From: Escherichia coli
GTDB taxonomy: Bacteria > Pseudomonadota > Gammaproteobacteria > Enterobacterales > Enterobacteriaceae
Strand: one strand, 5' to 3'
DNA: 40,549 nucleotides
Assembly: GCF_003334765.1 (NCBI RefSeq)
Contig: NZ_QOWT01000035.1
Of the stretch, positions 23,347 to 23,577 are shown in pieces. The notes beneath the pieces were generated by a model. The model did no database searches, had not been told where the DNA came from, and saw only the letters and a program-made list of their open reading frames with translations. How positions within the stretch are numbered: position 1 is the stretch's first letter; each line of letters starts with the position of its first letter. Position numbers and translations under genes: made by a program.

Positions 23347-23410
23347 TGCTTTCCTCTTTTTTCAGGGGTATTACTGCGCGAGGAAACTAACAGTAAAATT
23401 CTGAATCTTT

Positions 23411-23424
23411 TTGCGCGAAATCAA
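23411..23424. promoter_or_regulatory. candidate FNR box (TTGCG-N4-ATCAA) in the fdnG/yddG divergent region
   Basis: TTGCGCGAAATCAA resembles the FNR consensus TTGAT-N4-ATCAA (one perfect half-site, 3/5 in the other), about 70 bp upstream of the fdnG start codon; fdnGHI is a known anaerobically induced operon. Confidence 0.35.
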
Positions 23425-23577
23425 AAAGAACATCTGTTTGCCACAAAATAATCCGCCTTCGCAAATTGACCTACCTCAATAGCGGTAGAAAAACGCACCA
23501 CTGCCTGACAGGCCAGTTAAAAAAATGCTATAAAATTCAGCTTAATTTTTAACGGCAAGAGAGACAAAACAGCGAGC

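Follow-up and report, generated by a model that had tools for sequence, protein, structure and literature searches.

The interval 23347–23577 of the window (the whole 40,549-nucleotide stretch of E. coli chromosomal DNA analysed here) is, with a probability that we put at about 0.9, the classical control region of fdnGHI, lying back to back with yddG, in which FNR bound at -42.5 recruits RNA polymerase and NarL bound farther upstream gives nitrate induction. The region is the fdnG promoter itself, site for site, rather than a relative of it: each of the six FNR and NarL strings annotated for the E. coli K-12 promoter fdnGp (RegulonDB/EcoCyc) is found a single time in the window, on the minus strand and with unchanged flanks, and no site differs. 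The fdnG promoter counts among the founding examples of joint control by FNR and NarL; its architecture is already known, and nothing new about it is established here. The overlap of a second FNR site with the paired NarL heptamers, and the restriction of that site to Escherichia, is a small point beyond this known architecture. Binding and regulatory roles are taken from the literature throughout, and the identity, position and conservation of the sites come from the present analysis.

A 431-bp query round the region matched 5,416 complete E. coli records at 95–100% identity, many of them at 100%, and in 5,409 of the 5,416 the match covered 80% or more of the query; the annotation of these records names the flanking genes as fdnG and yddG. 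The product of fdnG is the alpha subunit of formate dehydrogenase-N, and yddG encodes an aromatic amino acid exporter. The open reading frame of fdnG lies on the minus strand with the first base of its ATG at 23346 (start codon 23344–23346, +30 to +32), and the start codon of yddG occupies 23578–23580 on the plus strand, as given both by the list of open reading frames and by the RefSeq annotation of identical DNA. Since the two genes begin at 23346 and 23578, 23347–23577 is the complete fdnG(-)/yddG(+) intergenic region, and the divergent control region proposed by an earlier sequence-only reading has borders that agree exactly with both start codons.

For comparison, one genome per species was scanned with FdnG residues 1–195, which yielded 80 loci, all with at least 88% identity, in about 30 genera of the Enterobacteriaceae, including Escherichia, Citrobacter, Salmonella, Enterobacter, Klebsiella, Raoultella and Kluyvera. 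The ATG of fdnG is aligned in all 80 loci, and the GAGG columns of its Shine-Dalgarno sequence AAGAGG (23353–23358, minus strand, +18 to +23) are conserved at 0.8–0.99.

The transcription start of fdnG was placed at an A at 23375 (minus strand), a position inferred from published site positions that were obtained via secondary sources (PMC3349551 and the supplements of PMC2718512): only +1 = 23375 gives the six annotated sites their centres of -42.5 and -97.5 for FNR and -77, -100, -109 and -124 for NarL. The extended -10 element TGtTAGTTT then lies at 23384–23392 (minus strand), with its TG at -17/-16 and its hexamer at -14 to -9, two bases upstream of the canonical position and followed by an 8-nt GC-rich discriminator, CCTCGCGC. 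Because the hexamer and discriminator are so placed, a true start 1–3 nt upstream of 23375 is possible, and such a start may bring the FNR centre to between about -40 and -42.

The element itself is strongly conserved. Among the 74 distinct non-Escherichia loci, TGnTAGTTT has a mean identity to E. coli of 0.94, compared with 0.48 for the upstream 190 bp overall, and of the 77 loci in which the element was matched, 76 have 28.5 bp between the FNR centre and its first base (the other one has 29.5 bp). A scan of 23300–23620 for consensus promoters and terminators made no call, as one would expect of a class II promoter that lacks a -35 element; this result is therefore no evidence against a promoter here.

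The FNR site TTGATTTCGCGCAA (23411–23424, minus strand) is centred at -42.5, a class II activator position, and is identified by annotation, by PMC3349551 and by its conservation. The sequence-only reading had described this segment as TTGCGCGAAATCAA, an FNR dyad with one perfect half-site and a centre expected near -41.5 of the mapped start, and in this it was right: ATCAA is perfect, TTGCG carries two mismatches, the segment is the annotated FNR site of fdnG and is conserved in 80 of 80 loci, and its centre lies at -42.5 relative to the start that follows from the published positions. The RegulonDB/CoryneRegNet set (PMC2718512 supplements) contains the 24-mer TCTTTTTGATTTCGCGCAAAAAGA among the FNR sites of b1474, and Babujee et al. 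(PMC3349551) place FNR at -42.5 and NarL at -77, -100, -109 and -124.

As a pattern, the dyad at -42.5 is a weak match that by itself proves nothing. Matches to TTGATnnnnATCAA with at most two mismatches number 33 in the window, compared with 24.5 ± 5.2 in shuffled sequence. A palindromic FNR position weight matrix (PWM), built from 62 ChIP-bound sites of Table S6 of Myers et al. (2013) with the fdnG site omitted, gives the -42.5 site a score of 10.4 (rank 8 of 40,536 window positions), and the site falls below the genome-wide cut-off used by Myers et al. Neither the bare FNR pattern nor the bare NarL pattern exceeds chance, and so the support for FNR must rest on position, conservation and the literature.

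Conservation is informative in this respect. Upstream of fdnG, TTGATnnnnn[G/T]CAA is present in all 80 loci, and 75 loci retain the imperfect GCAA instead of the consensus TCAA. The two half-sites have identities to E. coli of 0.98 and 0.98 in the 74 distinct non-Escherichia loci, compared with 0.51 for the spacer between them and a background of 0.48. Such a pattern, in which the half-sites and the -10 element are conserved and the spacer drifts, is characteristic of a functional FNR site accompanied by an extended -10. That the sub-optimal GCAA half-site is kept almost everywhere is a modest observation that the 80-species comparison adds.

The mechanism may be outlined as follows, its FNR and NarL roles being established in the literature and consistent with all of the above. 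Transcription of fdnG begins at about 23375 on the minus strand from the extended -10 TGtTAGTTT, with no usable -35, and an FNR dimer on the imperfect dyad, in the class II position, recruits RNA polymerase by a contact that replaces the -35 element, which accounts for anaerobic induction. Nitrate induction comes from phospho-NarL bound to paired heptamers in a 7-2-7 arrangement centred at -104.5 and to the single heptamers on either side of it, at -77 and -124. The weak but conserved GCAA half-site would leave FNR inefficient when acting alone, so that full activity would require both FNR and NarL, an AND gate that we infer.

The NarL sites are those of the MotifAdjuster supplements (PMC2718512), derived from RegulonDB/CoryneRegNet, which give the b1474 heptamers as CGGATTA, TGAGGTA, TACCGCT and AGTGGTG, the middle two forming a 7-2-7. 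The -77 heptamer, CGGATTA in the orientation of fdnG and TAATCCG on the plus strand, lies at 23449–23455, and the -124 heptamer, AGTGGTG in the orientation of fdnG and CACCACT on the plus strand, at 23496–23502, both as annotated and as positioned in PMC3349551. Between them, at 23472–23487 (minus strand), lies TACCGCT-AT-TGAGGTA, with heptamers at -109 and -100 and a centre at -104.5, which is identified as the annotated pair 3a/3b and by its conservation. From the bare sequence, the FNR site at -42.5 had been picked out correctly, but all four annotated NarL heptamers and the second FNR site at -97.5 had been overlooked.

The 7-2-7 has two mismatches to TACYYMTnnAKRRGTA. In 86% of 78 distinct loci a 7-2-7 with at most three mismatches stands at the same offset, 62.0 bp farther upstream than the FNR centre, compared with 0.16% at other offsets, and its sequence drifts through about 60 variants (e.g. 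TAACCCTAAAGGATTA, TACTCCCTTATGGGTA and TACCTCCCTGGAGTTA). This constancy of position at -104.5 while the sequence drifts is likewise a modest addition made by the 80-species comparison. The -124 heptamer is poorly conserved outside Escherichia (0.18).

Two further observations concern this upstream part. In four outlying taxa, L076, L078, L079 and L080 (strain LSJC7, Tenebrionibacter, Cedecea and Buttiauxella), the best 7-2-7 lies 39–42 bp upstream of the FNR centre, at about -81 to -85, which suggests that the NarL site may have been relocated in these genomes. A block GACTATTAAGGGGG, in the alignment columns that correspond to about 23443–23456 (-81 to -68), is strongly conserved outside Escherichia (ACTATT at 0.8–0.99) and is a poor NarL heptamer; at this place E. 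coli has GGATTATTTTGTGG, which contains the -77 heptamer.

The arrangement can be compared with those of other promoters under the same regulators. The narGHJI promoter, like that of fdnG, has FNR near -41.5/-42.5 and NarL heptamers far upstream, and for full activity both promoters need FNR and NarL. The NarL sites of narG are situated some 200 bp upstream and reach the promoter through DNA bending by IHF, whereas those of fdnG lie at -77 to -124, and we know of no IHF site at fdnG. No IHF enrichment is recorded at the fdnG site in Table S6 of Myers et al. Together with napF, nirB and nrfA, fdnG makes up the four classical NarL/NarP 7-2-7 cases, and all share the 7-2-7 pair as a high-affinity NarL/NarP target; at fdnG, however, the pair lies farther upstream than in nirB or nrfA and is flanked by single heptamers.

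The second FNR site, TTGAGGTAGGTCAA (23466–23479, minus strand), is centred at -97.5 and is identified by its annotation for b1474, by Table S6 of Myers et al. and by the PWM. It appears in the PMC2718512 supplements as CGCTATTGAGGTAGGTCAATTTGC, the second FNR site of b1474, and as TTGACCTACCTCAA at 23466–23479 it scores 15.8, rank 1 in the 40.5-kb window. The site overlaps the -100 NarL heptamer by 7 bp and thus covers it completely, so FNR and NarL should compete at this position. Among the loci compared, only the window and L001–L005 have it, the latter being E. coli, E. albertii, Escherichia sp. and a single MAG that carries the label Citrobacter and in which the FdnG segment shares 99% identity with the query. 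None of the 74 loci from other genera has the site.

A precedent for such a pair of sites is yfiD, where tandem FNR sites at -40.5 and -93.5, 53 bp apart, are found and FNR at the upstream site holds expression low. Both promoters have a class II FNR site and a second FNR site some 53–55 bp upstream (55 bp by computation at fdnG), but the upstream site of fdnG differs in that it overlaps the NarL 7-2-7 and is limited to Escherichia, and by function it is a candidate site.

The site at -97.5 might be a functional, Escherichia-specific addition, where FNR in the absence of nitrate would block the 7-2-7 and keep fdnG low, or would serve yddG, until displaced by phospho-NarL. We regard this as possible but rather unlikely. 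The complete overlap with the -100 heptamer and the 55-bp centre-to-centre distance to the -42.5 site, near the yfiD spacing, speak for such a role, but half of the site is simply the NarL heptamer TGAGGTA, and so it may be a by-product of the NarL site. Its retention in E. coli, E. albertii and Escherichia sp., where the sole change falls in the non-contacted spacer, argues for a function, although the 74 loci of other genera keep the same promoter without it. A strong FNR ChIP peak is seen in glucose medium without nitrate, yet fdnG has no FNR-dependent expression there, which also speaks for it; for yddG, however, the response to FNR is given as N/D (Federowicz et al., 2014). We give similarly limited credence to a candidate competitive switch, suggested by the overlap of the motifs, in which FNR would occupy the 7-2-7 without nitrate, keeping fdnG low or acting for the divergent yddG promoter, and in which phospho-NarL would evict it when nitrate is present and help to load the weak -42.5 site. 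If true, the switch would be a lineage-specific layer on an otherwise family-wide promoter design.

Another proposal, that the FNR molecule relevant in vivo occupies the strong -97.5 site and that the -42.5 site is incidental, is very improbable. It draws on ChIP and on motif scores. In the ChIP-seq data of Myers et al. (2013), all four peak callers find an FNR peak at 1545309 (yddG/fdnG), and the sole predicted site under it in their Table S6 is the -97.5 site, at 1545292 with a PatSer score of 14.43. Our conversion of K-12 to window coordinates, which reproduces three sites of Table S6 exactly, the fdnG site included, puts the -97.5 site at 10.5 bp from the peak centre and the -42.5 site at 44.5 bp. 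By PWM, too, the -97.5 site comes first in the window (15.8, compared with 10.4 at -42.5), and it alone passes the threshold of Myers et al.

The peak position was rejected as an arbiter between the two FNR sites once the offsets had been calibrated: for 54 single-site peaks the median offset between peak and site is 23.5 bp, and 30% of the offsets are at least 44.5 bp, so that the position cannot separate -42.5 from -97.5. The remaining evidence favours the proximal site. The -97.5 site is confined to Escherichia and its centre is too far upstream for it to substitute for the missing -35 element, whereas the -42.5 site is found in 80 of 80 loci at a fixed spacing from the -10, and the literature (PMC3349551) puts the functional FNR site at -42.5.

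In the ChIP-chip data of Federowicz et al. (2014), the Fnr signal-to-noise ratio at this locus is 6.2 in fermentation and 106.7 in nitrate respiration, and fdnGHI is classed as "Activation, Known"; the rise agrees with FNR and RNA polymerase being loaded in a NarL-dependent manner, at a resolution that does not distinguish the sites. Tables S5 ("ArcA motifs") and S6 ("Fnr motifs") of that study (PMC3974632) were set aside, their rows being identical in the version used here. The motif given there for the fdnG/yddG peak, TAGCATTTTTTTAAC (window 23516–23530), is AT-rich and not FNR-like.

The sequence-only reading had also assigned a NarL site to TACCCCT at 23364–23370 (minus strand), which lies at +6 to +12 in the transcribed leader. 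The string is there and is a perfect match to TACYYMT, but its role as a NarL site is not supported: the annotated heptamers of fdnG lie elsewhere, at -77 to -124, spanning 23449–23502 about 100 bases upstream of TACCCCT, and TACCCCT is absent from the list of four annotated for b1474. Matches to TACYYMT number 30 in the window, compared with 21.5 ± 4.1 in shuffled sequence, so that some 0.12–0.17 are expected per 231 bp by chance alone. A 7-2-7 partner was sought in the flanking 16-mers TACCCCTGAAAAAAGA and GCGCAGTAATACCCCT, and neither holds a second heptamer. The E. coli-like loci L001, L003, L004 and L005 retain TACCCCT, and E. albertii has ACACCTG in its place; none of the 74 non-Escherichia loci has a counterpart, and the mean column identity among them, 0.28, falls short of the regional background, which is 0.48. 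We judge that TACCCCT, in the mRNA leader, very probably matches the consensus by chance and has no demonstrated role.

NarL is a repressor at some other promoters, and the converse view would make TACCCCT a real operator at which phospho-NarL just past the start modulates fdnG, e.g. by lowering its expression when nitrate is abundant. The heptamer's perfect consensus, its identity with the high-affinity narG -89 half-site used in building TACCCCTAAAGGGGTA and its retention in four E. coli-like loci lend this some colour, but a single, unpaired and unannotated heptamer, lost beyond those loci and within what chance supplies, at a gene that to our knowledge is only nitrate-activated, makes it the least probable of the alternatives. 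The region offers two cautions on consensus matching: its one perfect TACYYMT is very probably the wrong site and none of the four real heptamers is perfect, and the neighbouring FNR site, confined to a single lineage, is a better match than the functional one.

On the yddG side, a putative extended -10, TGcTATAAA, lies at 23526–23534 on the plus strand, as judged from its sequence; the columns of TGCTATAA are conserved at 0.4–0.77, above the regional mean. The somewhat longer segment TGCTATAAAAT at 23526–23536 (plus strand), which likely represents this yddG extended -10, shows moderate conservation among genera and was not called by the consensus promoter scan.

Elsewhere in the window, two further good matches to the FNR PWM occur at 27638–27651 inside narU (upstream of narZ) and at 17903–17916 inside adhP (upstream of yddM). 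Both are predicted sites in Myers et al. and were unbound in their ChIP-seq.

The leader of fdnG, counted from the end of the -10, is 36–37 nt in Escherichia. Longer leaders of 85–93 nt are found in L009, L022, L030 and L032, and of 143–182 nt in L041, L044 and L020; the taxa concerned are Citrobacter, Salmonella, Intestinirhabdus, Phytobacter and Enterobacter wuhouensis, and the inserted sequences are mutually unrelated and without an Rfam match. An Rfam scan of the intergenic region and of the longer leaders of other genera returned no family, the sole match being the SECIS of fdnG. This element (SECIS_3, 84.3 bits) lies at 22706–22764 on the minus strand, directly after the in-frame UGA selenocysteine codon of fdnG, and is also present in L009, L020, L030, L041 and L044.
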